A DNA stretch of 64,000 nucleotides from an uncultured Candidatus Saccharibacteria bacterium (GTDB taxonomy: Bacteria > Patescibacteriota > WWE3 > CAZQFB01): the NCBI GenBank assembly GCA_964592525.1, contig CAZQFB010000002.1, positions 3,310-67,309 of the forward strand, given 5' to 3'. The notes under the pieces were generated by a model, which was not told where the DNA came from, did not search any database, and saw only the letters and a list, made by a program, of their open reading frames with translations. Both the position numbers and the translations under genes were made by a program. Of this stretch, positions 5,604 through 53,482 are shown piece by piece; positions within the stretch are counted from its first letter, which is position 1; each line of letters begins with the position of its first letter.

Positions 5604-5856
5604 CTCACTACCTCCTTGGTTTGGTGAATGTTTGCCAAGATCTTACCACACACAAGGATTTTTTCCAGGCTTGGTAGGGGTTTGGAACCCCCGGGGTTGG
5701 GGGAGTTTGTTTAAAAACACATGACACTTCGGCATGAGTAGGAGCTCAAATTTCCAATTAGTTGGTAGTTCTCACGCCACGCCCACCTGTTGGCAGTTGG
5801 ATGATCTGGGTTATTAAAAATGCCCGTTGACTTTTCGGGTTGTATTCGGGTACGTT

Positions 5857-5996
5857 GTAAAAGACCCTTCGACAGGCTCCCCGCTATCACGTTGGGTACG
5901 GGGCAAGCAGGGTTAGTTCAATCAGCAACTCATTATGATAGTCATTGAGTTTAAAAGATCCTTCGGCAGGCTCAGGATAAGTTCAATCAGCAATTT
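5857..5996. repeat. Degenerate direct repeat (two copies) upstream of small ORF and Y-family polymerase
   Basis: aaaagacccttcgacaggctc ... ggttagttcaatcagcaact repeated as aaaagatccttcggcaggctc ... aagttcaatcagcaattt. Confidence 0.4.
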
Positions 5997-6022
5997 ATTA
6001 GAGCATTTATTGGATTTCACTT

Positions 6023-6265
6023 ATGCTAACCACCATTGATGAACCTATTACTGTAGCTGGAGTTTATGAAGGAACTTCGTTCCTTCCCGCTGTATTCAAG
6101 TGGAAAAACGGTAAGTTCAAGGTGGAGGAGATTACTTTGGTGAGTGACTTACAGGATGGTGGAGTGAGAAAGCGTGTGTACAGTGTGGTTTCAGGAGATA
6201 CCTTGTACCGGCTCTGTTTTGATAGGGAGCAGGAGAGTTGGCGATTGGTGGCGATTGCCAATTAG
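6023..6265 (+). CDS. Hypothetical small protein upstream of Y-family polymerase
   Basis: 80-aa ORF 48 nt upstream of polymerase gene, same strand; possible accessory subunit (inference only). Confidence 0.35.
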   Translation: MLTTIDEPITVAGVYEGTSFLPAVFKWKNGKFKVEEITLVSDLQDGGVRKRVYSVVSGDTLYRLCFDREQESWRLVAIAN

Positions 6266-6312
6266 TCTGCCCCTGTTGGTAGACAGTTTTTAGTGATCAG
6301 TTCAGATGTTAT

Positions 6313-7596
6313 TTGCTTCATATGTCATCATTCATGAGCCGACGGCGAATCTTACACATTGATATCAATTCTTATTTTGCCATTCTGCTTCAGCAGGAAA
6401 ACCCCAAACTACGTGGTAAACCTGTTGGGGTGGTTAAATCAGCTGGTCGCCACTTGATTATTGCTGCCAGTAAGGAAGCTAAAGAAAAGGGGGTCAAGAC
6501 TGGTATGGCTTTAAGGGAAGCACGCCAGCTGTGCCCAAGCCTTATCAGCGTACCGGCTGAATTTGATTTTTATCTCTCGGCCACGCGGAAATTTTACGAT
6601 CTGCTTAAAAAATTTACCCCTAATTTTTACCCTTTTTCTTTGGATGAAGCGTTTTTGGATATTACCAATATGGAGCGTATCTATCCGAGTGCTAAAGAGT
6701 TGGGCCACCAGATACAGGATAAGGTAAAGGAGGTGTTAGGAGAGTGGGTTACCTGTAATGTGGGTATTAGCCATACTTATCTTTTGGCTAAAATAGCGGG
6801 TGAGATTAGCCCTAAAGGTAGTGTGACCGAGATTACGGCAGAAACAAAAGACAATGTTCTCAAAAGGGTGGGGTTTGATGATGTTTGTGGGGTGGGTAGG
6901 GGGTTGAGTAATAAATTACATCAGTTGGGAGTGACTACTCCTTATCAAATCAGGTCATTGCCGGAGGAGGTGTTGGTTGGGGCAGTTGGTCCTTTTTGGG
7001 CTAAGGAACTTAGGTTTATCAGTCAGGGTGAAGACTCTTGTACCCTTCGGGCTTTAGATACTGGGAACTTGGTTTTTAAATCACAAATGAAAAGTGTCAG
7101 CCGATCGGTAACTGGCTACAGGTTGTGCGACTCTGAAACAGAGATTAGGAGTATTATTTACAATCTTACACAGGAGGTTTGCTTTAAAGCTAGAAGCATG
7201 AATCTTGCGGGCAGGCATCTTGCTTTGATGCTTCAGGGTTCTAACAGGTCTTATGGATCCAGCATGACTTATTATAATCACTGTACTTTAAAGAAGTATT
7301 TAAACCTTACTGATGATGTGTTTTTTGTTATTTATAATCAGCTGTATAAGAACTGGAAACGTTCGTTTAAGGTCATTCGTTATTTAGTTAGGTTATCGGA
7401 CTTGACGCTTATAGACCAGCAAAGTCTGCCTTTGTTTGAGGCGGACAGGAAAAAAGAAAAGGTCTATCAGGCGATGGATAAACTGGCAGAAAAATATGGT
7501 CTTTTTACGGTGCGCTCGGGAGTGCTTATTGATACGCCAGTGTTAAGACCCGAGGTAACAGGTTATTTTGGCGACAAAGGGTACTACCTGCAGTAG
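6313..7596 (+). CDS. Y-family DNA polymerase (DinB/UmuC-like translesion polymerase)
   Basis: N-terminal ILHIDINSYFA, GKPVGVV, SLDEAFLDIT motifs typical of Y-family polymerases. Confidence 0.8.
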   Translation: MLHMSSFMSRRRILHIDINSYFAILLQQENPKLRGKPVGVVKSAGRHLIIAASKEAKEKGVKTGMALREARQLCPSLISVPAEFDFYLSATRKFYDLLKKFTPNFYPFSLDEAFLDITNMERIYPSAKELGHQIQDKVKEVLGEWVTCNVGISHTYLLAKIAGEISPKGSVTEITAETKDNVLKRVGFDDVCGVGRGLSNKLHQLGVTTPYQIRSLPEEVLVGAVGPFWAKELRFISQGEDSCTLRALDTGNLVFKSQMKSVSRSVTGYRLCDSETEIRSIIYNLTQEVCFKARSMNLAGRHLALMLQGSNRSYGSSMTYYNHCTLKKYLNLTDDVFFVIYNQLYKNWKRSFKVIRYLVRLSDLTLIDQQSLPLFEADRKKEKVYQAMDKLAEKYGLFTVRSGVLIDTPVLRPEVTGYFGDKGYYLQ

Positions 7597-8866: not shown

Positions 8867-9536
8867 TTCGCTGATGCCCTTGTCAGAAGATATGGAGGGA
8901 AGATGGTTCTATGAAGGCTACCCTTCGGAAGTGTTTACACTTTCGACCGAGTGGCCTCGAATGCAGATTACTGCTACCGAGCCTTTCATGCTCCCCTATT
9001 GGTCCCAAAAGCTGATTACTGCTACTGAGCCTTTCACGCCCACCTACTGGGTTCGTATGGAGATGGCTGCTACCCAGCCTTTCACGCTGACCTATCTGGG
9101 TTATACACAAGTACCCACGTCCTATCTTTTCCAGCCCCAAGAAGCAGATCCTGTATCAGAACCGCTGACTTGGGGTTGGGGTCAGGGGATCAATGAACCA
9201 AGTCCTGCCTATGAAAATGAACGTTTCGCCCATAACACCTTGCCTCCAGGAGAGGTAGGTAGTTATTACTGGTTTGATTTTGAAGCAATGGGTGGGACCT
9301 GGCAGATAAGCTCGGAAAGAAAACCCCTTGAAGATGGTTGGCCTAAGCTACGGCTTAGAAGTGATCTGCCCTTTAAGGTCTACTCCAGGGCCATTGATGA
9401 GCAAGTGATCACAGCCAATCTGATTGCATCGGTGACTTCGATAATGTGGGTAGTAGGCTATGTAGTGGTCATCTTAGCTATGCTAGCTTATATTGTCAAA
9501 GTTGTGACCGATCTGAGAAAAGAAACCCAGGCCTGA
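8730..9536 (+). CDS. Bitopic surface protein, paralog 2 (with internal 3x repeat expansion)
   Basis: N-terminus MRVQKLLLDVAKVLAVLLLMGLAVW identical to paralog 3; triple ATEPF/ATQPF repeat; C-terminal TM. Confidence 0.65.
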   Translation: MRVQKLLLDVAKVLAVLLLMGLAVWVYLGWQVEPKLPVLGEATYIDSLMPLSEDMEGRWFYEGYPSEVFTLSTEWPRMQITATEPFMLPYWSQKLITATEPFTPTYWVRMEMAATQPFTLTYLGYTQVPTSYLFQPQEADPVSEPLTWGWGQGINEPSPAYENERFAHNTLPPGEVGSYYWFDFEAMGGTWQISSERKPLEDGWPKLRLRSDLPFKVYSRAIDEQVITANLIASVTSIMWVVGYVVVILAMLAYIVKVVTDLRKETQA

Positions 9537-9544
9537 GCAAGAAA

Positions 9545-9583
9545 GAGTGGGGGTGCTGTCTGCCCTCACTCTTTATTTTATTC
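9545..9583 (+). terminator. Rho-independent terminator, copy 2
   Basis: Same hairpin gagtggggg-loop-ccctcactc plus T-run after paralog 2. Confidence 0.6.
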
Positions 9584-9904
9584 ATCTTACCTCGAGCAAC
9601 TTATTTGACTGATTATATCCAGGTGTTAATTTTGATAATCTGTTTTCACTAATGACCAGCTAACCTTTAGTTTGATAAGTCTACAAACCCCCAGGGTTGG
9701 GTTTGCTAGTTTGACAGTGTGGTTGAGCAGGAGTATTTTTCTCTTACGCTCTTGAATAACCAAATGGAGGTGGAGAGGTGAGAGTCCAGAAGCTGCTTTT
9801 GGATGTAGCCAAGGTTTTGGCGGTGCTTTTACTTATGGGTTTGGCTGTTTGGGTGTATCTGGGATGGCAGGTAGAGCCGAAGCTTCCGGTACTGGGTGAG
9901 GCGA
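9545..9904. repeat. Direct repeat copy 2 (terminator + promoter region + 5' coding region)
   Basis: Near-identical to 8497-8866. Confidence 0.7.
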
Positions 9905-10497
9905 TATATGTGGATGAGCTGAAGCCCCTGTCAGAAGAGAAGGGGGGAAACTGGCTCTATGAAGGTTACCCTTCGGAAGTGTTCACCGTTTCTGCCGACG
10001 TGGCACAAATGCAGATTGCTGCCACCCAACCTTTCACGCTCACCTATCTGGGTTATACCAAAGTACCTGCGTCTTATCTTTTCCAGTCTGAAGAAAGACA
10101 GCATGAGGCAGAATTAGTGTCTTGGGTTCAGGAGATAAACCAGCATACGCCTGCCTGGAAGTATGAAACCTCACCTCCCGAGCCATTAACGGTTGCAGAG
10201 GTGGGTAGTTTTTACTGCTTTGATTTTGAAACTCTTGGTGGTACTTGGCAGATAAGTTCGCAGAGAAAACCCCTTGAAGCTGGTTGGCCTAAGCTACGGC
10301 TTAGAAGTGACCAACCCTTTAAGGTCTACTCCCGGACCATTGATGCGCAAGTGATCAAAGCCTATCGGATTAACTCGGTTCTTCCGAGAATACTAGTAGT
10401 AGCTGTGGTAGGTATGATTTTGTCTTTGCTAGCGGTAATTGTCATTGTTGGTACCGATCATACGGGAAAAGAAAGCAGTCAGGGAAAAGAAAACTAG
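9778..10497 (+). CDS. Bitopic surface protein, paralog 3
   Basis: Same N-terminus and conserved blocks as paralogs 1-2; C-terminal TM and short basic tail. Confidence 0.65.
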   Translation: MRVQKLLLDVAKVLAVLLLMGLAVWVYLGWQVEPKLPVLGEAIYVDELKPLSEEKGGNWLYEGYPSEVFTVSADVAQMQIAATQPFTLTYLGYTKVPASYLFQSEERQHEAELVSWVQEINQHTPAWKYETSPPEPLTVAEVGSFYCFDFETLGGTWQISSQRKPLEAGWPKLRLRSDQPFKVYSRTIDAQVIKAYRINSVLPRILVVAVVGMILSLLAVIVIVGTDHTGKESSQGKEN

Positions 10498-10511
10498 CGC
10501 TAAGCAAGAAA

Positions 10512-10551
10512 GAGTGGGGGTGCCTGTCTGCCCTCACTCTTATGTTTAATT
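10512..10551. terminator. Hairpin terminator copy 3, shared by convergent genes
   Basis: gagtggggg-loop-ccctcactc followed by T-rich run; overlaps the stop of the minus-strand gene 10546-12411. Confidence 0.5.
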
Positions 10552-12411
10552 AGCACATTTAATAACAGGTGCGGGACCAACAGAGCCTAACTCGGAATCA
10601 TTAATCGCTGAAGGTACACCCCATTTTCGACCAATGCGGTCATAGTAATCTAAATAACCAATAGTACAATTACCAAACCGGTGTTTAATTAACGTGTAAC
10701 TGCCATAAGACTTATAATCAGTTTGCCGATAGCTATTATTTTGGATAATATTCTTTATTTCCAGGTACTTATTCCAAACTAGTTTGGCGCTGCCCGCTTC
10801 GTTAAACAAACCGAACTTATAAGCATTTGAGGCTTGGTCAATAGTTGTAAAGTAGCTAAGCACATTAATTTTTCGGTTATTGTGGTTGTAAGCGGCAGCT
10901 TCAACCGCCCAAATGGCTGCCATCGTGGCTTGATTGGTTTCATTTCTGGTCGTCCAAGTATCGGTAGGAGCACTGGCTCCCGTGCCTTCGGTAATCCATA
11001 TTTCAGTGTTGTTTAAGCCAAAACTATCAAGTAACTCTCTGACGTAATCAGCTTTTGTGCCAAGCCAAGTATTATTAGTTTTTACCCAACTACTGCGGAA
11101 ATCGTTATAAGCATGAATAGGCACCACTTCCAATAGTGACAGTTTGTTTTGTCGCTTAAGTTCGGTCAACACTTGCTTGAGGAAATCGCAATTAAATTTA
11201 CCGCTGCTGCCTGTTTTGACATTACGGTTGTCATTGAAAATGTAGCAATCATCCAAAGCCAAACCAGAAATGGCCACTTTAGTTTGGGGGTTTTGGGCTT
11301 TAATGGCTTCAGCGACGGCAATAAACACATTAGCGTAACCGCTGGGGTTGCTGCCATAGCATCCACCAGCATCACCAGAGGATTTGGTGAGATCAAAATC
11401 AGCCTCATTCATAATTTCCCACGTATCCACATAAGGATGGAGCGCGACTTTTTGTTTTGCCCAAGTAGAAAATTGTTGTATTGAGGGTTGATCAGTTTTG
11501 TTACACTGCTTGTCGCCAGGCATACTAAAAGAAGGGTGCAGCGTAACTGCTATTTTTTTACCGGCTTGATTTAATTCTTTAAACAAGGGTATTTCCTGCG
11601 AACCCCAGTCATAAGGTGGTGGCAGAATGCGTGGGTGCACCCTCTCAATTGGACTTTGTTTGATTTGCTCAAGTACCGAAGCCGGTTCAACACCTAATAA
11701 ACGTACACTAAATTCAGGCTGCCCTGTACTGATAGTTGGTGGTTGCTCTGGCGCGGGGGGGTTAGTTGCCGGCGGTGTTGGGGGGGTACTAGGTGGTGCA
11801 GGATTTGGCTCCTCTGGAGTACTAGCTACTTGGCAGTATTCGCTGGCATATTCGCGCCAATACTTTTCACTAAGGGCGGTTAATTGCTCTGGCTGGGAAG
11901 TAGCTTGGCAGGTGACGGTTGCTGAAGGATACACCTGGGTACCTTTGACGGTATAACCAGAGTTAAGATTAAGTTGGTAGGGACTGCTAGTGGTGGTAGA
12001 CTGACCTGCTGGTGCTGGGGGGGTCGGTGCGGGATCGCTTAGCGGAACGTCACATTCACAGTAGCCGTAAAGATATTCATTCCATTCCGCCTTAGTTAAA
12101 CCACTACGAACATAGGGGGTTGTTTTAGCGTAAATTGTTTGGTTTGAAGAGTATCGTGTGCAGTAAAAAGAGGCACTGGAATAAACGAGCTTGCCTGATT
12201 TGTAGTGACGTCCATAATAAGTGATGCTGTATGGACAAGTGGCTGATGCAGCTTGGCTACTTAGCCTGGTGGGTTGGTTGTTGAGAGGTATTACTATTAA
12301 AGCGGCTAGAAGGATAATAAAAAGACCCACAAATTGGGCATTTTTCTTAAGAGTTAAAACTATGGCAGGAAAGTCTAACATTTGATCTAGTTTTATAGCT
12401 ATTGTATCCAT
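10546..12411 (-). CDS. Secreted/membrane-anchored glycoside hydrolase-like protein (clan GH-A-like TIM barrel) with Cys-rich N-terminal repeats and Pro/Thr linkers
   Basis: N-terminal TM, repeated EWNEYLYGYCECD / YWREYASEYCQ modules, PT-rich linkers, candidate catalytic motifs WEIMNEAD and IWITEGTG. Confidence 0.5.
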   Translation of the reverse strand: MDTIAIKLDQMLDFPAIVLTLKKNAQFVGLFIILLAALIVIPLNNQPTRLSSQAASATCPYSITYYGRHYKSGKLVYSSASFYCTRYSSNQTIYAKTTPYVRSGLTKAEWNEYLYGYCECDVPLSDPAPTPPAPAGQSTTTSSPYQLNLNSGYTVKGTQVYPSATVTCQATSQPEQLTALSEKYWREYASEYCQVASTPEEPNPAPPSTPPTPPATNPPAPEQPPTISTGQPEFSVRLLGVEPASVLEQIKQSPIERVHPRILPPPYDWGSQEIPLFKELNQAGKKIAVTLHPSFSMPGDKQCNKTDQPSIQQFSTWAKQKVALHPYVDTWEIMNEADFDLTKSSGDAGGCYGSNPSGYANVFIAVAEAIKAQNPQTKVAISGLALDDCYIFNDNRNVKTGSSGKFNCDFLKQVLTELKRQNKLSLLEVVPIHAYNDFRSSWVKTNNTWLGTKADYVRELLDSFGLNNTEIWITEGTGASAPTDTWTTRNETNQATMAAIWAVEAAAYNHNNRKINVLSYFTTIDQASNAYKFGLFNEAGSAKLVWNKYLEIKNIIQNNSYRQTDYKSYGSYTLIKHRFGNCTIGYLDYYDRIGRKWGVPSAINDSELGSVGPAPVIKCAN

Positions 12412-25429: not shown

Positions 25430-25575
25430 TAAAAAGGAATCCGTCTCTCTCTCTCCTTTCAAGGGGCAGTTCAATGAACTAACCCTTGCGAAAACACCTC
25501 GCTTTTGGCGGGGAGTTTTCGTTATTAAGGTTTTTCCTTTAATGTTCGTGGTTTATCTTTGATACAATTCCTATT

Positions 25576-28032
25576 ATGGTAGAACAATTACCTCTTTTGG
25601 TCTTGTTTGTAATCTTACTTTCTTTTTACTTAGCAGTTCGTGCGGCAAGGATAAAAATGGAAGAGAAGAACCCTTCTACGTTTGAAGTAACCTTCTTCAA
25701 AATTCGTGTACCTAAAGGTAATACTAAACAGTCATTATCGGCGGAACAGATGTTTGCTTCACTTCACGGTTTGTTGCGGGAAAAAGATAGCATTCAAGAG
25801 CATATCAGCTTTGAAATTGAGTCTAGTGAAAACGGCATTAATTTTTATGTGGTGGCACCCAATGTGGTGAAAGAATTTGTGCTTGGTCAGATCTATGCTC
25901 AATACCCGGACGCCGAAATTAAAGAAGAAAAAGATTATGCGCAATTAGCTTCTGCGGAAGGAGTAGCTATTAGTGGAGCACGGATAACACAAGCTAAAGA
26001 CTATTATTTTCCTATTCGGACCTTCCGAGATTTTGATGTGGATCCTTTGGCAGCAATTACCGGATCTTTTGCGGAGATGAGTCGCGGGGGTCGGGTGTGG
26101 TGGCAGATTATCGCTAGACCTCTTCCAGATAAGTGGCAGGAGGCGGGTCATGAATATGTGGCTGTGCAGAGAGGCGAGAAGAAACCTGCCGTCAAGTTAA
26201 GCCTCAAAATCTTAATGGAAGAAGTGCGTAAAGAGATAGTGGTTATCTTCTCTTTCATCGTGAAAAATATTTTGTATGGACCACAAACGAAAGAAGAGGA
26301 AAAAAAGAAAGAAGAAAAAACCATAGAGGGGATGAAAAAAGACACACTCTCGTTAATAGAGCAAAAACTGACTAAATTAGGTTTTGAAGTGCATATGCGG
26401 GTGGTGGCTATTCATCCAGATGAACTAACAGCCAAAGATTATGTGAAAAGGGTTAATGCGGCTTTGCGTCAATATGCAGCAGCCAATGTGAATAGTTTTA
26501 AAGCAGAATTTGCCGAGGATACCACGAAGTTTTTAGAACATTACCGCCAACGCCAATTTCCAGCCACATCAAAATTGATATTAAATACCGAAGAATTAGC
26601 ATCCATCTACCATTTCCCAAATGAAACGGTGGAAACCCCAGCGATCTCGTGGGCTCCCGCTAGACATGCAGAACCACCCCTCAATTTACCTATTAGAGAA
26701 TGCACTTACTTTGGCAAAACAACTTACCGTGATAAGTTGATTACCTTTGGGATCAGAAGGGAAGATCGACGGCGTCACATGTACCTAATAGGGAAAACGG
26801 GTACGGGTAAAACGACGGTATTTAAAGCGATGATTAAACAGGATATGGATAACGGTGCGGGTTTTGCCGTGATTGATCCCCATGGACAATTGATTGATGA
26901 GTTGTTGGAGATGGTACCTGACCATCGTTTGGAGGATGTGGTTATTTTTGATCCGTCTGATACCACTAAACCGGTAGCCTTGAATTTGTTAGAAGCAAAC
27001 ACTGAAGATGTGGGACAGAAAAATTTGTTGGCTTCGGGGTTACTGATGGCTTTTAAAAAGAACTTTGAGTATTCATGGGGACCTAGACTAGAGTATTTGT
27101 TGAATAATGCCATTTTAACTCTGGTGGGGGTAGATAAAACGACACTGCTGGGTATCACGCGCTTGTTAAGTGATAAAAACTACCGCAAGTATATTACTTA
27201 TAAGGTGAAGGACCCAATATTAGCTGATTTTTGGGATAATGAGTACACTGAATTTCAACAGTCGCGTATTGCTACCGAAGCGGTAGCACCAATTCAAAAT
27301 AAAGTGGGTCGGTTTTTAGCTTCTTCAACGATTAGAAACATTTTAGGTCAAGCTCATTCCACGATTGATTTTGACGACATTATGAATAGTGGCAAAATGT
27401 TATTTATCACCTTATCTAAAGGCAGAATCGGTGAGGACAATGCTAATTTACTAGGTAGTTTATTGGTTTCACGTTTAAACTTTTCTGCAATGCGTCGGGT
27501 AGATATACCCGAAGAGCAGCGTCGGGATTTTAATCTTTATGTGGATGAGTTTCAAAACTTTGCTTCCGGTGATTTTGCTTCCATATTATCAGAAGCACGA
27601 AAATATAGATTGAACCTACATCTTACTCATCAGTATACCAAACAACTACCCGAGGAAATATTAGATGCTGTGGTCGGTAACGTGGGTACTTTAGTGGCTT
27701 TAACCCTAGGCGCTCCGGATGCATTAGCGCTGGAAAAAGAATTTGAACCTGTCTTCACGGCTAATGATCTTATCAACTTGGAAAAGTACCAGTTTTATAC
27801 TAAATTAATGATTGATCAGACCTCTTCTTTGCCTTTTTCAGGGATTACTATTCCTCCGCAAGAGTTTGAAGTGTTAACCGGAAACAGAGATAAAGCGGTG
27901 CAAAAGAGTCGAGAAAAGTATGGTCGTGAGAGAGAACAGGTGGAAGAAATTATTAAGCGCTGGCGAGTGCGCAACTTTGATTTGGGCATGGCCAAAGCGG
28001 AAGAAATAGTAGCTAATAGAGAAGGGAATTAG
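25576..28032 (+). CDS. Membrane-anchored P-loop NTPase, HerA/VirB4/TraC-like
   Basis: N-terminal TM, ~380-aa N-domain, Walker A LIGKTGTGKTT, IDPHGQL motif, Walker B LYVDEFQNF. Confidence 0.5.
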   Translation: MVEQLPLLVLFVILLSFYLAVRAARIKMEEKNPSTFEVTFFKIRVPKGNTKQSLSAEQMFASLHGLLREKDSIQEHISFEIESSENGINFYVVAPNVVKEFVLGQIYAQYPDAEIKEEKDYAQLASAEGVAISGARITQAKDYYFPIRTFRDFDVDPLAAITGSFAEMSRGGRVWWQIIARPLPDKWQEAGHEYVAVQRGEKKPAVKLSLKILMEEVRKEIVVIFSFIVKNILYGPQTKEEEKKKEEKTIEGMKKDTLSLIEQKLTKLGFEVHMRVVAIHPDELTAKDYVKRVNAALRQYAAANVNSFKAEFAEDTTKFLEHYRQRQFPATSKLILNTEELASIYHFPNETVETPAISWAPARHAEPPLNLPIRECTYFGKTTYRDKLITFGIRREDRRRHMYLIGKTGTGKTTVFKAMIKQDMDNGAGFAVIDPHGQLIDELLEMVPDHRLEDVVIFDPSDTTKPVALNLLEANTEDVGQKNLLASGLLMAFKKNFEYSWGPRLEYLLNNAILTLVGVDKTTLLGITRLLSDKNYRKYITYKVKDPILADFWDNEYTEFQQSRIATEAVAPIQNKVGRFLASSTIRNILGQAHSTIDFDDIMNSGKMLFITLSKGRIGEDNANLLGSLLVSRLNFSAMRRVDIPEEQRRDFNLYVDEFQNFASGDFASILSEARKYRLNLHLTHQYTKQLPEEILDAVVGNVGTLVALTLGAPDALALEKEFEPVFTANDLINLEKYQFYTKLMIDQTSSLPFSGITIPPQEFEVLTGNRDKAVQKSREKYGREREQVEEIIKRWRVRNFDLGMAKAEEIVANREGN

Positions 28033-28679
28033 TGATGAAGGATACGCAAGTTAATGAGATTTTATCTTTAATAGAAGAAGCGGAGAAAGCTTTAAAAAAA
28101 TCAAAAATGCTGATGACTTCGGATAGTCAAAAAATAAGTGGTGCTACAACTAAAGAGGCACCAAGCCAAGAAGCCAGCACGGAAGGTGTGTTTATGGGTG
28201 ATTATGTTTTGCTATCTACGGGGAATAAATTGAAAATTGCCGAGTCTTATGCAGCGCGTACTAATTTGGTGGTAGGGGACATTTTGGTATTGGAATCTCG
28301 TGAAGGAGAGCAGGGGAGGTTTAATTTAAAAGAGCGGGTTCAGAGAACATCAGCCAAAGCGACTTATACGTCTAAAGGAGGTCAACCTATTGCTAAAATA
28401 GGAGCGAAGGAGTATAAAGTACCCCAAATCTCGGTAGAGCATTTTAATTTAAAGGAAGGGGACGCTATTACCATATTATTACCAGTTGCCGGTCAAACTA
28501 ATTACGCCCCAATTGAAAGTAAAATAAACGTTTCAGTTAAAGAAGCTGTCTCTCCTCCCAAAGAACCCAGCAGCGCACCCGCAGGAGAGAAAAGAGGTGC
28601 GGAAAAAATGGTTGACGAACCCCAAGTAGTCAATTCAGATGATCCGGGGAGAGTTTTAGAATATTATGATTTAAGGTAA
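28032..28679 (+). CDS. Hypothetical protein translationally coupled to the NTPase
   Basis: Start overlaps the NTPase stop; 215 aa, no recognisable motif. Confidence 0.45.
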   Translation: MMKDTQVNEILSLIEEAEKALKKSKMLMTSDSQKISGATTKEAPSQEASTEGVFMGDYVLLSTGNKLKIAESYAARTNLVVGDILVLESREGEQGRFNLKERVQRTSAKATYTSKGGQPIAKIGAKEYKVPQISVEHFNLKEGDAITILLPVAGQTNYAPIESKINVSVKEAVSPPKEPSSAPAGEKRGAEKMVDEPQVVNSDDPGRVLEYYDLR

Positions 28680-28713: not shown

Positions 28714-29244
28714 ATGAGTGGACATTCAAAATGGTCAACGATTAAAAGAAAAAAAGAAGCAAAGGATGCCAAAAAAGGGGTGGCTTTTACTAAGGTCGCT
28801 CGTTTACTTACCGTGGCAGCGCGTGATGGTGGCGCTGATGCTTCTAGTAATGCTTCTTTGCGTTTGGCTCTGGAAAAAGCCAAAGCGGTTAATATGCCTA
28901 AAGACGTGGTGAAAAGAGCTATTGATAAAGGGGCTGGTGGAGAAGCAGCCGCGCTTCAAGAAATTACTTTTGAAGGTTATGGTCCGGGAGGAGTGGCGAT
29001 CTTGGTGGAAGTGGTTACGGATAACCGTAATCGTTGTGTGGCCGAGGTGAGATCTGTTTTTAATAAGTTTAGTGGTTCTTTGGGGGAGACTGGTTCAGCA
29101 GCTTATATCTTTCCTAGTAAAGATAAACCTACTTTTAGAATACCGCTTCAGGATAACGAACAAGCTTCTTTAAGCCGATTATTAAATACATTAGAAGAGT
29201 TGGATGATGTTCAGGAAATTTATACTAATCAGGCGATAGAATGA
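28714..29244 (+). CDS. yebC: YebC/PmpR-family protein, shortened variant
   Basis: N-terminus MSGHSKWSTIKRKK, NMPKD, GYGPGG, DNRNR motifs; about 65 residues shorter than typical YebC. Confidence 0.8.
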   Translation: MSGHSKWSTIKRKKEAKDAKKGVAFTKVARLLTVAARDGGADASSNASLRLALEKAKAVNMPKDVVKRAIDKGAGGEAAALQEITFEGYGPGGVAILVEVVTDNRNRCVAEVRSVFNKFSGSLGETGSAAYIFPSKDKPTFRIPLQDNEQASLSRLLNTLEELDDVQEIYTNQAIE

Positions 29245-30023
29245 AGCTGGGGTTTTGGAATAAACGACAGCAATTTATTATCGTGGTCTTGTTAGAGTGG
29301 TTTTCCTTTTATCTCTGGCGTCAGGTTAACCCCGAAGTTTATTTCTCCTACGGTGGGTTATTTATTCTCGGTGCTCTTATCTTAATTGTATTTGCCTTGC
29401 GGGAGAATATGCAAGGGATGAGGCGCTTTATGTTACCGGCGTTACCTTTAAGCTTATATGTGGCAACATTATGCTTATTAACAACTTTAAGTATTGGCTC
29501 ACCGCTGTGGTACTTGGTGTGGGTAATATATTTACCCTTTTCCTATATTGCTTTATTATCTGTTAATATTTTTGGGGTGGCTTCTAGGAGGGAAGAACGT
29601 TCTATTCCTTTATTAAGAGCGGCGCACACGACTGCCTTTATTGATACTGTGGTAGTGGGCTTTATTTTTTACAGTTTTATTTATAACTTACCTTTACTAC
29701 TGTTTACGCAATTAAGTTTAGTTTTTGGCGTAACTGTGCTTTTAGTGTTTAATTATTTCTGGACGTTAAGCTTAGAAGAAAATGTAAGATGGACCTACCT
29801 CGCATTAGCTATTATCGCTGCTCTGCTCTTAACCCAAGCAGCTTTAGTGGCTAGCTTTTTTCCGCTTAAGTTTTCAACTCGTGGTTTATTACTTAGTACC
29901 ATTCTTTATTCCTTGGTGGGTGTGGTGCGCTATCGAATCATAGGGGAGCTGACGAGTAGAATTATGTTGGAATATGGCGTGGTGATTTTGCTTGTATTGG
30001 GGTTGATTGCGGCTTTTGATTAA
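29241..30023 (+). CDS. Hypothetical polytopic membrane protein
   Basis: 260 aa, about 7 hydrophobic helices; start overlaps yebC stop. Confidence 0.45.
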   Translation: MKLGFWNKRQQFIIVVLLEWFSFYLWRQVNPEVYFSYGGLFILGALILIVFALRENMQGMRRFMLPALPLSLYVATLCLLTTLSIGSPLWYLVWVIYLPFSYIALLSVNIFGVASRREERSIPLLRAAHTTAFIDTVVVGFIFYSFIYNLPLLLFTQLSLVFGVTVLLVFNYFWTLSLEENVRWTYLALAIIAALLLTQAALVASFFPLKFSTRGLLLSTILYSLVGVVRYRIIGELTSRIMLEYGVVILLVLGLIAAFD

Positions 30024-31185: not shown

Positions 31186-31236
31186 GGAATTAAAAAAGAT
31201 TAGGCTCGCTACGAGCAATCGCAACTTAGCGAGCCT
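31186..31236 (-). terminator. Rho-independent terminator of pentapeptide gene A
   Basis: 9-bp perfect stem aggctcgct/agcgagcct overlapping the stop codon, followed on minus strand by a U-run. Confidence 0.55.
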
Positions 31237-31735
31237 ATTTATTGGGCCTTCTCCTGGTGCTTTGACCGAATCGGTAAAGTTGGTTGGGATCTATTAAGGC
31301 ACTTTGCCAGTTTTGCACCTTTTTGAGAATGGCGCCGTATAGCCTGGCTTCTCTAAGATCAGCTTGATCAAGATCTGCCCCGGTCAAGTCCACCCAGCAC
31401 AATTCTGTTTGGATACACAGGGCACCGATGAGAGTTGCCTTTATCAGATCGGCCCCACCTAGCATAGCTTGGCTAAGGTCCGCTCCAGTAAGGTTGGCTT
31501 GGGTGAGGTTAGCTCCGTTTAACCTTGCCTTACGGAGATTGGCCCCAGTTAGATTTGCACCAACTAGGCTAGCCTGACAAAGGTCAGCCTCGTGCAGGTC
31601 AGCCTCGCTCAAGTCAGCCCCCCGCAGGTCAATTACTTCGTCTGGGTGCTTCTGCCTCCAAGCTTGGATCAGAGGTGCTAAGGGTTCCCCTCTAGCGTGT
31701 GCCTCGCGAAGAATATCCTTCAGTGACTCTGCCAC
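31235..31735 (-). CDS. Pentapeptide-repeat protein A
   Basis: Tandem A(D/N)LxX pentapeptides; N-terminal 31 aa identical to gene B; GTG start after GGAGAAGG. Confidence 0.8.
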   Translation of the reverse strand: MAESLKDILREAHARGEPLAPLIQAWRQKHPDEVIDLRGADLSEADLHEADLCQASLVGANLTGANLRKARLNGANLTQANLTGADLSQAMLGGADLIKATLIGALCIQTELCWVDLTGADLDQADLREARLYGAILKKVQNWQSALIDPNQLYRFGQSTRRRPNK

Positions 31736-31775
31736 CTTCTCCCCCCTGTGGTTTTATTCAGCGGATAATGGTGGG

Positions 31776-31804
31776 ATTGTAGCACTAGGCTAACACGAGG
31801 GCAA
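31776..31804 (-). promoter_or_regulatory. Promoter candidate TTGCCC-N17-TACAAT for pentapeptide gene A (module repeated at ~32296 and ~32904)
   Basis: Read on minus strand about 40 nt upstream of the GTG start; same module precedes genes B and C. Confidence 0.4.
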
Positions 31805-31811
31805 TTTGGGG

Positions 31812-31846
31812 TAAGTAAAAAGCCCGTCGGTTGCTAGCCAACGGAC
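31812..31846 (-). terminator. Rho-independent terminator of pentapeptide gene B
   Basis: On minus strand gtccgttgg-ctagcaa-ccgacgggc followed by ttttacttac; 10 nt after the gene B stop. Confidence 0.6.
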
Positions 31847-31855
31847 CTTGCTCTC

Positions 31856-32257
31856 TCACTCTGAATTAGCTTCTTGGAAACGCTTGCGGTTGGTTCTGCC
31901 CATTTGGGCTACTTCCCACCCGCTAAACCCTGCCAACAGGGATCCGCCCATCTTGGCACCGGTGAAGATGGTGTCCTCATCACCCCTCGCCCCCCACAGG
32001 TCAGCCCCGGTCAGGTCAGCCCCGGTCAGGTCAGCCCCGGTCAGGTCAGCCCCGCTCAGGTTAGCTCTCCACAGGTCAGCCCCGGTCAGGTCAGACCACC
32101 TCAGGTCAGCCCCACTCAGGTCAGCCCCGGTCAGGTCAGCCCCGCTCAGGTTGACTATTGCTTCAGGATGCTTCTGCCTCCAGGCTTGGATCAGAGGTGC
32201 TAAGGGTTCCCCTCTAGCGTGTGCCTCGCGAAGAATATCCTTCAGTGACTCTGCCAC
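31856..32257 (-). CDS. Pentapeptide-repeat protein B
   Basis: Tandem GADLT/GADLS pentapeptides; N-terminus shared with A, C-terminal ~40 aa shared with C. Confidence 0.8.
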   Translation of the reverse strand: MAESLKDILREAHARGEPLAPLIQAWRQKHPEAIVNLSGADLTGADLSGADLRWSDLTGADLWRANLSGADLTGADLTGADLTGADLWGARGDEDTIFTGAKMGGSLLAGFSGWEVAQMGRTNRKRFQEANSE

Positions 32258-32500
32258 CTTCTCCCCCCTGTGGTTTTATTCAGCGGATAATGGTGGGATT
32301 GTAGCACTAGGCTAACACGAGGGCAATTTGGGGTAAGTAAAAAGCCCGTCGGTTGCTAGCCAACGGACCTTGCTCTCTCACTCTGAATTAGCTTCTTGGA
32401 AACGCTTGCGGTTGGTTCTGCCCATTTGGGCTACTTCCCACCCGCTAAACCCTGCCAACAGGGCTCTGCCCATCTTGGCACCGGTGAAGATGGTGCCCTC
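32165..32500. repeat. Direct repeat copy 2 (5' coding region of gene B + promoter + terminator + 3' coding region of gene C)
   Basis: Near-identical to 31643-31978. Confidence 0.7.
32334..32368 (-). terminator. Rho-independent terminator of pentapeptide gene C
   Basis: Same hairpin as 31812-31846 with U-run. Confidence 0.6.
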
Positions 32501-32863
32501 ATTACCCCGCGCCCACCTCAGGTCAGCCCCCCTTAAGTCAGCCTTGCTCAGGTTAGCCCAGCTCAGGTCAGCCTGCCTCAAATCAGCCCAGCTCAGGTCA
32601 GCCTGCCTCAAATCAGCCCCGCTCAGGTTAGCCCAGCTCAGATCAGCCCAGCTCAGGTCAGCCCCGCTCAGGTTAGCTTTCCACAGGTTAGCCCACCTCA
32701 GGTCAGCCTCCCACAGGTCAGCCTTGCTCAGGTTAGCCCTCCGCAGGTAAGCTCCAGTCAGATCAAGCGGTACTTCTGGGTGTTCCACTTCCCAGGTTTG
32801 ACGAGCCTTTGCCCAGGTATCAGCTCCCTGTAGTAGTGCTTGCACCAACCCAGTATCAGCCAC
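32378..32863 (-). CDS. Pentapeptide-repeat protein C
   Basis: Repeats ANLS/ADLS/ADLR x about 14; distinct N-terminus; C-terminus shared with B. Confidence 0.8.
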   Translation of the reverse strand: MADTGLVQALLQGADTWAKARQTWEVEHPEVPLDLTGAYLRRANLSKADLWEADLRWANLWKANLSGADLSWADLSWANLSGADLRQADLSWADLRQADLSWANLSKADLRGADLRWARGNEGTIFTGAKMGRALLAGFSGWEVAQMGRTNRKRFQEANSE

Positions 32864-43091: not shown

Positions 43092-44846
43092 ATGCCTGCC
43101 CCTGAACCTAATACCACTTCTGCGACCAGTAATTTGGCTGAGTCGTTCACCTCACCCGAGGAGTTGTTGCTCCAGCAAGGTTTATTAACCCCCGAGCAAT
43201 ATGAAGAAATAAAGCAAGAACACATTAATACTGGTCAAGCCATTGAAGATCTTATCTTAGCTCGTGGGTATGTTAATCCTTTGACCTTTAACCAAGCTAA
43301 AGCGAAAGTGTTGGATTTAGCTTATGTGGAAGTTAATGGTTTAGAGGTGCCTTCGTTTATTTTAAATTTTATCCCGGAAACACTAGCCGCTAAGTACCTG
43401 GTACTGCCTTTTAAGGAAGAGGGTGCCAGCTTGCATGTTGCCATGGCGGATCCGCTTGATCTTCAGGTCATCGCTATTGTGGAGAAAAAATCTGGGATGC
43501 GGGTTAAACCCTACTTAGCGGATAAAACTAATCTGGGCTATGCAATCCAACAACAATATAGTAAAGCTTTTGGTTCAGAAGTATCTGAAGCTCTTAAGGA
43601 AGTTGGTCAGCTCACCCTGAAACCAACGAAACTGGATACCTTAGAAGGTACGGAATTGAAGTCTTTGGAGAATGCTCCCGTGGCGAGGATTGTGGGTCAG
43701 ATACTCCAGTATGCGGTTCGCTCTGGTGCTTCTGATGTCCACATTGAACCCGGTGAAGATAAAACGAGAGTACGCTACCGGGTGGATGGTGTGATGTCAG
43801 AGAAGTTAAGTTTACCGCTCACTGTCCATGCTAACTTGGTTTCGCGCGTTAAGATCTTGTCCAATTTGAAGATTGATGAAAAACGGTTACCTCAAGATGG
43901 GCGGTTTAAGGTGCAAGTTGGCACTACGATTATTGACTTAAGGGTGTCAACCTTACCTACAGTCTACGGGGAAAAAGTGGTCATGCGTTTGTTGGAAGGT
44001 GCTGGGCGGGTGATGGGTATTCAGGAATTAGGCATGCGTGGTAGTGCCCTGAAAAGATTTGAGGCTAGTTTATCTAAAACTTTAGGTATGATTTTGGTTA
44101 CTGGTCCGACGGGGAGTGGTAAAACTAACACTTTAGCTTCGGGTTTGGCGAGAGTGAACACGATTAAGGTCAATGTTATTACCTTAGAGGATCCAGTGGA
44201 AATACGTATTCCTGGGGCTAACCAGGTGCAAATCAACCACACTGCCGGTTTAACTTTTGCTTCGGGTTTGCGTTCTATCTTACGACAAGACCCTGATATT
44301 ATTATGGTGGGTGAGATCAGGGATCAAGAAACAGCTGAATTAGCGGTGCATGCTTCCTTAACGGGTCATTTGGTCTTTTCCACCCTGCATACCAAGTCAG
44401 CCGCGGGAGCTCTGCCGCGGTTGTATGACATGAAAGTTGAACCTTTTTTATTGGCTTCTACGGTAAATCTAGTTATGGCGCAGCGTTTGGTGAGAACCCT
44501 GTGTAATAAGTGTAAACAACCTTACGTGCCCAGTGATGAGGTTAAAGCTGATATCAGCACAGTACTTGGTGCTTATCTTTCTCTGGATCTATCTAAGCTG
44601 CAGCTTTATAAACCAGTAGGTTGTAGTGAGTGTGGGTCGGAGGGTTATGCTGGTCGGACGGGAATTTTTGAGGTTTTAGAAGTTACCCCTCGGATTGGTC
44701 GGGCGATCATCCAACGCCAGCCCGAAGGAGAACTCCAAAAGATTGCCGTTGAGGAAGGCATGTTGCCCTTACTACTTGATGGTTATTTGAAAGTGGTTGA
44801 TGGTACAACGACCATTGAGGAAGTCTTAAGAGTAGCCAAGGATTAA
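43092..44846 (+). CDS. pilB: Type IV pilus assembly ATPase PilB (GspE family)
   Basis: N-terminal GspE_N domain, Walker A TGPTGSGKT, tetracysteine motif. Confidence 0.9.
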   Translation: MPAPEPNTTSATSNLAESFTSPEELLLQQGLLTPEQYEEIKQEHINTGQAIEDLILARGYVNPLTFNQAKAKVLDLAYVEVNGLEVPSFILNFIPETLAAKYLVLPFKEEGASLHVAMADPLDLQVIAIVEKKSGMRVKPYLADKTNLGYAIQQQYSKAFGSEVSEALKEVGQLTLKPTKLDTLEGTELKSLENAPVARIVGQILQYAVRSGASDVHIEPGEDKTRVRYRVDGVMSEKLSLPLTVHANLVSRVKILSNLKIDEKRLPQDGRFKVQVGTTIIDLRVSTLPTVYGEKVVMRLLEGAGRVMGIQELGMRGSALKRFEASLSKTLGMILVTGPTGSGKTNTLASGLARVNTIKVNVITLEDPVEIRIPGANQVQINHTAGLTFASGLRSILRQDPDIIMVGEIRDQETAELAVHASLTGHLVFSTLHTKSAAGALPRLYDMKVEPFLLASTVNLVMAQRLVRTLCNKCKQPYVPSDEVKADISTVLGAYLSLDLSKLQLYKPVGCSECGSEGYAGRTGIFEVLEVTPRIGRAIIQRQPEGELQKIAVEEGMLPLLLDGYLKVVDGTTTIEEVLRVAKD

Positions 44847-44849
44847 AAG

Positions 44850-45917
44850 ATGCAGACAAACCCAACCTTAGACGAAATATTAAAAGCGGTTATCAATCTC
44901 CGGGCATCGGATTTACATTTAACGGCGAATCTTCCTCCGATTGTACGGGTGGATGGTACGCTTAAGCCTTTAGAAGGCTTTGCCAGTTTAACTGATGAGC
45001 TGGTTAATGGCTTGGTTTTGGCGATGTTGGGAAAAGAAAAAACCGAACAGCTAAAGCAGAATCTAGAAGTGGATACTTCCTACGCACACGAACAACTGGC
45101 GCGTTTTAGAGTGAATGCCTATTTTCAGCGTTCCCATATAAGTGCTGCTTTGCGGTTGATTCCAGCCAAGATACCCTCTTTGCGGGAATTAGGTATGCCG
45201 GATATTATTGCCACTTTCTGCTCTTTACCTTATGGTTTGGTGCTGGTAACGGGACCAACCGGTCAGGGTAAATCAACCACCATTGCTGCCATGATCCAGT
45301 TGATTAATGAAACCCGTAATGTCCATATTGTCACCATTGAAGATCCGATTGAGTATGTGTTTACCCCCCAAAAAGCGTTAATAACCCAGCGGGAAATGCA
45401 TCATGATACCCATTCTTGGGAGGTGGCTTTGCGCAGTTCACTGCGGGAAGATCCTAATGTTGTTTTGGTGGGAGAGATGCGTGATTTTGAAACCATTGCC
45501 GCAGCGATAACCATTGCCGAAACTGGTCATTTGGTTTTTGCCACCCTGCACACGAGTAGTGCTTCCCAGTCAATTGACCGGATTATTGATGTTTTCCCGG
45601 AAAACCAGCAACAGCAAGTTCGGGTCCAGTTATCGGCGATGCTGGAAGCGGTCATCTCGCAACGGCTGTTACCAAGACTCAACGGTGGGCGGGTGGCAGC
45701 CGTTGAAGTGATGACGGCGACTCCGGCGGTGCGGAATATTATTCGTGAAGGCAAAACGCATCAGGTGGATAATGTCATTGCCACTTCGGCTGATGTGGGG
45801 ATGTTGTCGTATGAATATTCGCTGGCTAATTTAGTAAAAAGCCGGGTTATTGCTGAAGAGGCAGCACTGGCGGCTACCACCAGACCGGAAGAATTAACAC
45901 GCTTACTTAAGAGGTAA
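44850..45917 (+). CDS. pilT: Type IV pilus retraction ATPase PilT
   Basis: 355 aa, Walker A TGPTGQGKSTT, PilT-size without N-terminal GspE_N domain. Confidence 0.88.
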   Translation: MQTNPTLDEILKAVINLRASDLHLTANLPPIVRVDGTLKPLEGFASLTDELVNGLVLAMLGKEKTEQLKQNLEVDTSYAHEQLARFRVNAYFQRSHISAALRLIPAKIPSLRELGMPDIIATFCSLPYGLVLVTGPTGQGKSTTIAAMIQLINETRNVHIVTIEDPIEYVFTPQKALITQREMHHDTHSWEVALRSSLREDPNVVLVGEMRDFETIAAAITIAETGHLVFATLHTSSASQSIDRIIDVFPENQQQQVRVQLSAMLEAVISQRLLPRLNGGRVAAVEVMTATPAVRNIIREGKTHQVDNVIATSADVGMLSYEYSLANLVKSRVIAEEAALAATTRPEELTRLLKR

Positions 45918-52907: not shown

Positions 52908-52930
52908 GCTAAAAATAATATGGAGGTAAC

Positions 52931-53482
52931 ATGAACAAAAAAGCAGTCATCTTAATAGGATCCTTAATCGTGCTTATATTTTTGGGTTTAGCGACTTGGT
53001 ATATCAATCATAACCCAAAAAACACTTCCGAGGCTGCTCAAATAGCAGTGCCTTTTGGCAGCCATGAAAGTGGCGCGCAAAATAGCCAAGCAAATTTAGC
53101 CAACGATCCTCGTTATAAGGACTACCGTACGGAACCAGTACCACCCTCCTCTGACTTTAGTGTGTTTTTAACTGATGCTTTTGGTACCGAGATAGCCAAC
53201 GATTCGGTGATTACCGTTGATGACTCCAGTTATATCACTAATTATGACCTGCACTTTCCTAATTTAGGTCAGCTGGAAAGTGGAGAGAGTTACACCTTAT
53301 GGTTACAAACGGACGAGGGTGCCCGCACACTGCTAGGTCAACTTGAGGTGGCGGAAGGTGTGGGTGTCTATCAGGCAGCAGGGTCAAGAGTGAAAGCGGG
53401 CTGGAGCATTTTGGTGATATATGAAAATAGCGCTAATGAAGAAAACCTGATTTACCGAGGCAGATTAATACCTAAGCCATAA
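52931..53482 (+). CDS. Hypothetical membrane-anchored protein
   Basis: 183 aa, N-terminal TM. Confidence 0.4.
   Translation: MNKKAVILIGSLIVLIFLGLATWYINHNPKNTSEAAQIAVPFGSHESGAQNSQANLANDPRYKDYRTEPVPPSSDFSVFLTDAFGTEIANDSVITVDDSSYITNYDLHFPNLGQLESGESYTLWLQTDEGARTLLGQLEVAEGVGVYQAAGSRVKAGWSILVIYENSANEENLIYRGRLIPKP

Follow-up and report, generated by a model that had tools for sequence, protein, structure and literature searches.

Type IV coupling proteins (T4CPs) such as VirD4, TrwB, TraD and DotL have in common a nucleotide-binding domain (NBD) with an all-alpha insertion, a Walker A–DPxG–Walker B layout and an N-terminal membrane anchor, which in TrwB consists of two transmembrane (TM) helices. 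In Patescibacteria (the candidate phyla radiation, CPR), 5,713 homologues of VirD4-like T4CPs have been counted in 2,918 of 3,035 genomes, 148 of them near virB4, and the authors of that survey leave open an exapted function (Quinonero-Coronel et al. 2025, PMC12102498). These bacteria make up much of bacterial diversity, are unable to synthesize nucleotides and are attached to the cells of their hosts; their type IV secretion systems (T4SSs), although essential, have no recognized coupling protein or relaxase, while their VirD4-like genes are near-universal, scattered and unexplained. Here, a gene pair is described from a 64-kb stretch of contig CAZQFB010000002.1 (the whole of this stretch is called the window), in which the gene for a membrane-anchored, T4CP-like ATPase of 818 amino acids (aa; 25576–28032) is followed by a partner gene (28035–28679), both on the + strand, as are all features of the pair given below. 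By its sequence signatures and by gene context, the ATPase is assigned to the T4CPs of the VirD4/TrwB type and not to VirB4 or HerA, and the partner is modeled as a tandem OB-fold protein. We put at about one in two the probability that the pair forms a chromosomally fixed, T4CP-driven and relaxase-independent module for translocation of single-stranded nucleic acid, with the OB protein serving as adaptor.

Family and domain anatomy of the ATPase

Searches against Pfam matched TrwB_AAD_bind (PF10412) to residues 396–693 with 34.7 bits against a cut-off of 20.5; DUF87 also scored above its cut-off, TraG-D_C matched weakly, and neither AAA_10 nor CagE_TrbE_VirB matched the ATPase at E ≤ 0.1. Homologs carry precomputed PF10412, PF12696 and PF02534 annotations. 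The best NCBIfam matches were the VirD4-like CD1115, TraD and CedD models, all scoring well under the respective equivalog cut-offs (CD1115: 47 bits, cut-off 250), which marks the ATPase as a divergent T4CP member; VirB4_plasma reached 17.7 bits against a cut-off of 590, in the P-loop region only. Sequence matches in the PDB were to DotL and TrwB. When the model of the ATPase was compared with known structures, the figures obtained were 23.7 for TrwB (355 residues aligned), 23.7 for the VirB4 C-terminal domain, 23.3 for the DptH/DndH C-domain, 20.9 for DotL, 18.9 for both HerA and Cag-beta, and 11.9 for FtsK; in Foldseek the whole chain aligned to full-length TrwK with E about 1e-12. The T4CP features found were a HerA-FtsK-type P-loop NBD with intact Walker A and B motifs, a signature profile, the all-alpha insertion and the N-terminal membrane anchor, and an accompanying T4SS or relaxase was found only for plasmid homologs, not in the 64-kb window. 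The ATPase showed neither the HAS-barrel N-domain and NurA or defence-effector partner of HerA nor the FtsK_SpoIIIE motor, gamma domain and four-TM N-terminus of FtsK/SpoIIIE.

The plasmid homologs were collected by tblastn against 72,556 plasmids, which returned 264 records with a homolog; plasmids of haloarchaea, Bacillus, Streptomyces, Staphylococcus and Sulfolobus, among others, carry homologs that are collinear over their full length. One of these, from a B. subtilis plasmid of 24.7 kb, is collinear over residues 74–754, covering both domains (E = 6e-47), and its gene comes first in a conjugation operon of Gram-positive type with the order homolog, Replic_Relax, intervening genes, TcpE, AAA_10 VirB4 (848 aa) and conjugal-transfer proteins. 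Because the homolog stands beside Replic_Relax and VirB4 is a separate gene, the family occupies the coupling-protein slot; the VirB4 gene of the operon, the one expected next to VirB3/TcpE, is the different, AAA_10 gene. Haloterrigena pHTS138 has the gene in two parts, one for a 399-aa N-protein and one for an ATPase with a TraM-recognition domain, and both are neighbors of pilin and conjugal-transfer genes. These relatives give DUF8128, the N-terminal domain of the family, a context: it forms the N-domain in a class of coupling proteins found in monoderms and archaea, to which the window ATPase belongs. MOB-suite types 228 of the 264 homolog-bearing plasmids as "non-mobilizable", yet the Bacillus example (NZ_CP032854.1, locus L084) has a full conjugation-like operon; standard mobility typing may miss such a class of T4CP and relaxase.

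An original prediction, made from the sequence alone, had placed the protein among the HerA/FtsK/VirB4/TraC-type translocation ATPases, and this superfamily stands. Its narrower label, HerA/VirB4-like, gives way to VirD4/TrwB-type in view of the TrwB_AAD_bind score above cut-off, the lack of an AAA_10 or CagE_TrbE_VirB match and the T4CP slot held on plasmids; of the families it had proposed for profile classification, DUF87 was matched (together with TrwB_AAD_bind), and AAA_10 and CagE_TrbE_VirB were not. The ATPase had also been set apart, rightly, from the pilus ATPases PilB and PilT, which lie at 43092–45917.

The protein begins with a single TM helix (residues 5–28; 25588–25659), seen in the sequence and as a helix at 5–28 in the AlphaFold2 (AF2) model. 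The basic stretch RAARIK follows directly, and by the positive-inside rule the rest of the ATPase is predicted to be cytoplasmic. DUF8128 comes next (residues ~30–375, about 345 aa; 25663–26700), delimited by precomputed PF26449 in homologs and by AF2, in which residues 38–345 form beta-alpha-beta-beta-alpha-beta units and a long helical hairpin. This is the N-domain that had been predicted at about 380 aa, and it is real. The DUF8128 profile had no match among PDB sequences or in Pfam, and the literature searched contained no paper mentioning "DUF8128".

The TrwB/VirD4-like NBD (residues 377–760; 26704–27855) carries Walker A, GKTGTGKTT (residues 406–414; 26791–26817), the IDPHGQL motif (residues 433–439) and Walker B, VDEFQNF (residues 656–662; 27541–27561). 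In an alignment of 25 homologs, G406, K407, G409, G411 and K412 of Walker A, the DPHG motif, and D657, E658, F659 and Q660 of Walker B were invariant. Between the two Walker motifs, AF2 and the alignment place the all-alpha insertion (residues 479–605; 27010–27390), which bears the family signatures SWGPRLE and PIQNKVGRF and, as modeled, is equivalent to the TrwB all-alpha domain. The conserved C-terminal helices with the RW..FDLGMA motif (residues 771–817; 27886–28026; alignment and AF2) are the point at which relatives append S1 domains or long linkers. The AF2 model as a whole (pLDDT, the predicted local distance difference test, 81) consists of the TM helix, the N-domain, a RecA-like NBD with the all-alpha insertion and three C-terminal helices. 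The ATPase is classed as a translocase of the T4CP type, NTP-driven and membrane-anchored, with an intact catalytic site and a presumably hexameric assembly.

The partner protein and its link to the ATPase

The partner had been described as a 215-aa protein with no recognizable motif, and at the level of sequence this holds: searches of Pfam, NCBIfam, PADLOC, PHROGs and PDB sequences gave no match, its profile matched nothing in the PDB, and a word-index homolog search with the partner alone recovered only itself. At the level of fold it does not hold. Structure prediction, which had been suggested as a check, gave tandem OB folds in the AF2 model, with pLDDT about 95 in the core. As modeled, the partner is composed of an N-terminal amphipathic helix (residues 2–33; 28038–28133; pLDDT >90; conserved in the alignment of stand-alone partners), two OB folds of cold-shock/S1 type, a linker and an acidic tip. 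OB fold 1 (residues 49–100; 28179–28334) has the topology b1-b2-b3-alpha-b4-b5, predicted as a five-stranded barrel with a helix between b3 and b4, and OB fold 2 (residues 104–163; 28344–28523) was placed by the AF2 model and fold comparison. The low-complexity linker (28524–28655), disordered by its pLDDT of <50, the alignment and composition, is K/P/E/A-rich and variable in length across the family. The tip, LEYYDLR (28656–28676), corresponds to a family consensus of [DE][DE][DE][DE]L[RS] immediately before the stop codon; 182 of 213 representatives (85%) end in [DE][DE]Lx, and 153 of 213 in [DE]LR.

Family members were found with a profile built from the syntenic open reading frames (ORFs) directly downstream of ATPase homologs (loci L001 and L002 have the same architecture). 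A search with this profile gave 72 homologs, and an exhaustive hidden Markov model (HMM) search gave 1,145 representative partner clusters, 1,018 of them at E ≤ 1e-10, all unannotated and without any Pfam domain. The alignment has a core of about 115 aa with G51, G55, Y72, G81, D82, L84, R104 and P150 invariant. One partner homolog (P0128) is labeled "Candidatus Nanoarchaeia archaeon" and one ATPase locus (L073) "Nitrospirota bacterium"; both are probably mis-binned Patescibacteria contigs.

For analysis of gene linkage, 82 loci were fetched and combined with the window, giving 99 ORFs for DUF8128 ATPases. In 13 of these loci, the partner lies directly beside a short-tailed ATPase, and in a neighbor-joining tree the partner-linked ATPases fall into two deeply separated clades: "paralog A", whose gene comes first in the tandem pairs of Berkelbacteria-like lineages, and a WWE3/Woykebacteria clade that includes the window ATPase. 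Reciprocal look-ups with three divergent partner homologs placed all three 1–25 nt downstream of a DUF8128 ATPase, and all three loci share the conserved synteny LspA-RluD-LytR_C-ATPase-partner-YebC-RuvC-XerC. Locus L008 encodes the OB core as an extension of the ATPase C terminus, after a long linker rich in Q and P (hmmsearch E = 3e-32); the same ATPase-OB fusion occurs in an independent fragment (P0190). The L008 fusion covers only partner HMM positions 50–173 and has no N-terminal helix, which suggests that the helix is probably a tether or docking element in the two-gene form; we infer from this that it probably docks onto the ATPase. In one subclade of WWE3, a fused S1 domain directly follows RW..FDLGMA, and the partner gene is retained nonetheless.

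The pairing of ATPase and partner is thus far beyond chance, and the downstream ORF, which the original prediction had named as a partner, is a genuine and conserved one by adjacency, fusion and reciprocal look-ups. The prediction was to fall if the ATPase proved to be a housekeeping enzyme of known function with no conserved partner, and this is not what was found. Conserved, tight adjacency of this kind would also be expected if the partner were a subunit that regulates the ATPase, inhibiting or gating it much as CagZ does Cag-beta, with no role in nucleic-acid binding and with the ATPase serving protein secretion or another membrane process. Cag-beta/CagZ (8dol) is indeed among the structural neighbors of the ATPase. 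We consider this explanation improbable, since the OB fold is typical of nucleic-acid binders, the partner has conserved Tyr, Phe, Lys and Arg positions, and the independent acquisition of S1 and HARE-HTH/sigma-r4 modules by the ATPase family points to nucleic acid.

The ORFs of 818 and 215 aa, the motifs quoted from them and the one N-terminal TM helix were all present as originally predicted. Counted from a GTG, the second ORF spans 28032–28679 (215 aa), and with the ATPase stop codon (TAG) at 28030–28032 this start would give a 1-nt overlap, as had been proposed. The ATG at 28035 (214 aa) is the more probable start and leaves a gap of 2 nt instead; it has a Shine-Dalgarno-like AAGGG 8 nt upstream, and the public annotation (P0121, 214 aa) starts there. 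Under either start the two genes are tightly coupled, and the corresponding gap in relatives is 1–52 nt. A terminator-like hairpin with a T-run, identified by consensus scan only, lies between the LytR/LCP gene and the ATPase gene (25497–25513) and probably delimits the transcription unit on its 5' side. The same kind of scan gave no terminator-like site between the ATPase and partner genes, and matches in a promoter scan were no more numerous than in shuffled sequence.

Distribution, variant loci and proposed function

A database search returned >3,600 ATPase homologs, all with the DUF8128 and TrwB_AAD_bind architecture, and at least 593 GTDB species representatives across the CPR encode a relative. 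The lineages concerned are WWE3, Woyke-, Dojka-, Berkel-, Saccharibacteria, Peregrini-, Peri-, Buchanan-, Morani- and Falkowbacteria, and the closest relatives among the matches listed are metagenome-assembled genomes of WWE3 and Woykebacteria. The family is chromosomal and nearly universal in Patescibacteria, in agreement with the published count (PMC12102498). This near-universality, with synteny to housekeeping genes across the CPR, makes it very improbable that the ATPase is an FtsK-like translocase for segregation or dimer resolution, a defence ATPase of the DndH/DptH, mad8 or HerA type, or part of a decaying integrated conjugative element, even though XerC, RuvC and dcw-cluster genes are neighbors, PADLOC gave a mad8 match at 3.6e-17 and a weak DndH match, and homologs occur on plasmids. 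Each form of the idea was tried and rejected. A substitute for FtsK is at odds with the canonical FtsK of Southlakia (SEML1_0096), which is essential (PMC10633639 supplement); the PADLOC matches cover the ATPase core only, there are no adjoining defence partners, and the gene is core and syntenic; and a mobile-element remnant does not fit the uniform base composition, the conserved housekeeping synteny and the lack of a relaxase or integrase boundary. In PHROGs, phrog_5156 (function unassigned) matches the window ATPase end to end over residues 74–793 (E = 3e-89), so that either CPR phages or prophages carry the ATPase or CPR contigs are counted as viral in that database.

About 50 loci, mostly from Saccharibacteria and Parcubacteria, encode long-tailed ATPases, with a low-complexity extension of 60–300 aa and a G-[EQ]-h-[RK]-h tip. 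Directly upstream of these lies a gene for a protein of about 345 aa with sigma70_r4 and HARE-helix-turn-helix (HTH) domains (L017:4726-5754, L024:4917-5957, L036:4680-5780, L043:3062-4222 and about 45 more loci). Many family members end in this short tip at the stop codon (LEGEIRFEG, AGQEVSLR, PGQVVKF), and it is often preceded by the 60–300-aa low-complexity linker (P0003, P0004, P0006; L001:6001-8523; L029, L031, L043, L047, L067); the window ATPase has no such tip and ends in ANREGN. Tandem arrays (L015, L017, L018, L021, L023, L011, L007, L035) are made up of paralog A (about 850 aa), a short OB partner of 165–179 aa without linker or tip, the HTH protein and a long-tailed paralog B of 970–1107 aa, and explain the roughly two T4CP homologues per genome in the literature. 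Dojkabacteria ATPases have neither partner nor tail. In 11 Parcubacteria-type species, the ATPase gene is split exactly at the DUF8128/NBD boundary (HMM position ~376), into a protein of about 425–490 aa with the TM helix and DUF8128 and an NBD protein of about 490–670 aa (L042, L043, L047, L048, L052, L055, L057, L058, L060, L067 and L081; for example L043:4265-5629 and 5636-7474). A haloarchaeal plasmid also has a split gene (L085:7758-8957 and 8947-12051), and such natural splits indicate that DUF8128 is an autonomous module.

On this basis, the following mechanism is proposed for the translocation module. The tandem OB folds would bind single-stranded nucleic acid, either single-stranded DNA (ssDNA) or RNA, while the N-terminal helix would tether the partner to the ATPase; the OB protein would thus act as a substrate adaptor that presents the strand to the motor. 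The ATPase would then pump the strand, and perhaps the partner along with it, to the cytoplasmic membrane or across it. A further component could dock onto the acidic tip, and likewise onto the tips of long-tailed ATPases. The conduit might be a Patescibacteria T4SS encoded elsewhere or a ComEC channel, and the direction either export or import. Service to a T4SS, for export or for exchange with the host, is a tentative assignment that we hold to be doubtful, and ComEC-type uptake is equally so. Nucleic-acid binding, a physical complex and transport are predictions, whereas the family assignment, domain anatomy, OB folds, conserved adjacency, gene fusion and distribution across the phylum were observed. 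The OB folds, and the S1 fusions and sigma70_r4/HARE-HTH neighbors within the same ATPase family, point to a nucleic-acid substrate. Plasmid relatives have a relaxase-like neighbor where the CPR clade has the OB protein, which suggests relaxase-independent presentation of the substrate in that clade.

Several observations weigh against this reading. Proteins, too, are translocated by T4CPs, and the substrate may therefore be something other than a nucleic acid. Many lineages (Dojkabacteria, most Saccharibacteria) have no partner gene, and the partner is therefore not obligatory for the ATPase family. Comparison by hhalign of the partner with the S1 domain fused to sister ATPases gave a probability of 0.3%, indicating no homology. 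No VirB4, VirB6, VirB8 or relaxase gene, and no T4SS or com gene, is present in the 64-kb window; the VirB6- and VirB8-like genes that were to be looked for are missing there, and the pair cannot, from this window, be called the core of a secretion or translocation module, as it had been. By transposon sequencing in Southlakia, SEML1_0293, an ATPase of the long-tailed type, is non-essential (reads going from 5817 to 2940 to 1372); this gene has no partner, and the function would be dispensable there in co-culture. In the same data set, the HTH gene immediately upstream (SEML1_0294, annotated RpoS) and a second T4CP-like gene (SEML1_0142) are essential (PMC10633639 supplement).

The conserved acidic motif at the extreme C terminus, behind a disordered linker, can also be read as a secretion signal. 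VirE2, an ssDNA-binding protein, is exported through VirD4 by a C-terminal signal, and Glu-rich C-terminal signals (E-block) are read by the Dot/Icm coupling complex. By analogy, the ATPase would be the true coupling protein of a Patescibacteria T4SS, whose virB4 cluster would lie elsewhere, and the OB protein its translocated substrate or effector, with the tail and tip as signal. This would agree with the T4CP homology and with plasmid relatives in the T4CP slot, and the essential T4SS cluster of Southlakia has no recognizable coupling protein (PMC10633639); yet it is hard to reconcile with the OB core being covalently fused to a membrane-anchored ATPase at L008, and group-I partners lack the tail and tip altogether. 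As only 148 of the 5,713 CPR homologues lie near virB4 (PMC12102498) and the Southlakia group-II-type relative is non-essential while the T4SS is essential (PMC10633639), we regard this explanation as unlikely.

In another possible arrangement, the ATPase and OB partner would form the motor for ssDNA uptake in natural competence, pulling the strand through ComEC and passing it to DprA/RecA in a ComFA-like role, as in Firmicutes. OB and S1 modules would suit single-stranded substrates, long-tailed paralogs lie 1–3 genes from dprA-topA in 22–30 Saccharibacteria loci, and WWE3-type loci adjoin YebC-RuvC-XerC. Both dprA-topA and yebC-ruvC are, however, widely conserved pairs, so that proximity may be incidental, no direct comEC link was seen among the loci examined, and the known T4CPs act in export. 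The com genes of Southlakia are dispensable, as is SEML1_0293, unlike the T4SS (PMC10633639). ComEA is reported in only 31% of CPR genomes, and the authors of that study see a hint of alternative DNA handling, but they also report the ComFC/ComFA family as widespread in the CPR (PMC6744442). Taken together, an uptake motor of this type is a speculative option with a low likelihood.

The broadest version of the idea is a core machine of the whole phylum, a domesticated coupling ATPase whose relaxase neighbor has been replaced by a tandem-OB "pilot" or by fused S1/HTH modules and which moves ssDNA or RNA between epibiont and host or via ComEC; this is a long extrapolation that is more probably wrong than right by a good distance. 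Should such a machine be real, it would supply a missing piece of nucleic-acid acquisition or exchange in nucleotide-auxotrophic Patescibacteria. The OB linkage in a major clade, the recruitment of S1 and HTH modules in sister clades and the relaxase-like neighbor on plasmids point to relaxase-free handling of single strands and provide a testable hypothesis for the orphan T4CPs. The ATPase family itself is already catalogued. As far as the searched literature shows, the partner family, its fold and its tip motif are new, as are the Rosetta-stone fusion, the pattern of paralogs and accessory modules, the natural domain split and the connection of DUF8128 proteins with the T4CP slot on plasmids of monoderms and archaea.

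Genomic setting and comparison with known systems

The window belongs to the core chromosome of a member of the Patescibacteria (CPR). Upstream of the pair lie genes for DnaB, tRNA-Leu, EF-P, an Lgt-like protein, RluD, an RNHCP protein and LCP/LytR, and downstream those for YebC, DUF5656 and XerC; GyrA/GyrB, HolB and a type IV pilus cluster with PilB/PilT/PilC are also encoded in the window. GC content is uniform around the pair, the ATPase is single-copy with no second paralog in the window, and the window has no HARE-HTH gene. The ATPase gene is accordingly an orphan, chromosomally fixed T4CP gene in housekeeping synteny. The YebC gene (176 aa) is followed directly by DUF5656 (28714–30023), with RuvC absent at that position; RuvC sits between YebC and DUF5656 in relatives L002, L083 and L086–L088.

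Three further regions of the window were noted. Three tandem pentapeptide-repeat ORFs (166, 133 and 161 aa) lie at 31235–32863 on the - strand, in a stretch with a GC content of 0.50 against 0.41–0.44 in the flanks; two of the three have a near-identical N terminus, MAESLKDILREAHARGEPLAPLIQAWRQKHP, and the repeats generate long spurious ORFs on the opposite strand. A 621-aa ORF at 10546–12411 (-) had no Pfam match. At 50481–55776 (+), within the type IV pilus cluster, lie the genes for two large proteins of 808 and 764 aa, which have SdrD_B-like domains and may be pilus-associated adhesins.

The closest known systems are the T4CPs, above all the uncharacterized ones with a DUF8128 domain on plasmids of Firmicutes, actinobacteria and archaea. 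Set beside the T4CPs, whose NBD architecture it shares, the window ATPase differs in having one TM helix and a cytoplasmic N-domain of about 345 aa, where two TM helices would lead straight into the NBD. It also differs in being chromosomal, nearly phylum-universal and in housekeeping synteny, with no adjoining virB4 or relaxase. Where T4CPs have a relaxase or a TraM-type accessory protein, its family has an OB-fold protein, S1 modules or HTH modules. VirB4, TraC and TrwK have a similar two-domain plan, with an N-domain of about 380 aa and a C-terminal ATPase, but the window ATPase has no match to the AAA_10 or CagE_TrbE_VirB profiles and no VirB3, VirB6 or VirB8 neighbors. The likeness to the archaeal DNA-import ATPase CedD of the Ced system and to the TcpA/FtsK-type coupling proteins of Gram-positive bacteria is confined to the P-loop, with scores far below cut-offs.

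For the partner, the closest parallel in overall plan is the single-stranded DNA-binding protein SSB, which is built from an OB module, a disordered linker and an acidic C-terminal tip. The partner follows the same logic and has a conserved tip as well, of the form [DE]n-L-R rather than D-D-D-I-P-F. The OB topology b1-b2-b3-alpha-b4-b5 is held in common with the cold-shock domains (CSDs) of RNase R/II, S1, the Rho N-domain and IF1, whereas searches by sequence and by profile detected no homology with the SSB, S1 or CSD families. Unlike SSB and these OB RNA binders, the partner has its OB folds in tandem after a long helix, and its gene accompanies that of a membrane ATPase, with which it is fused in some cases.

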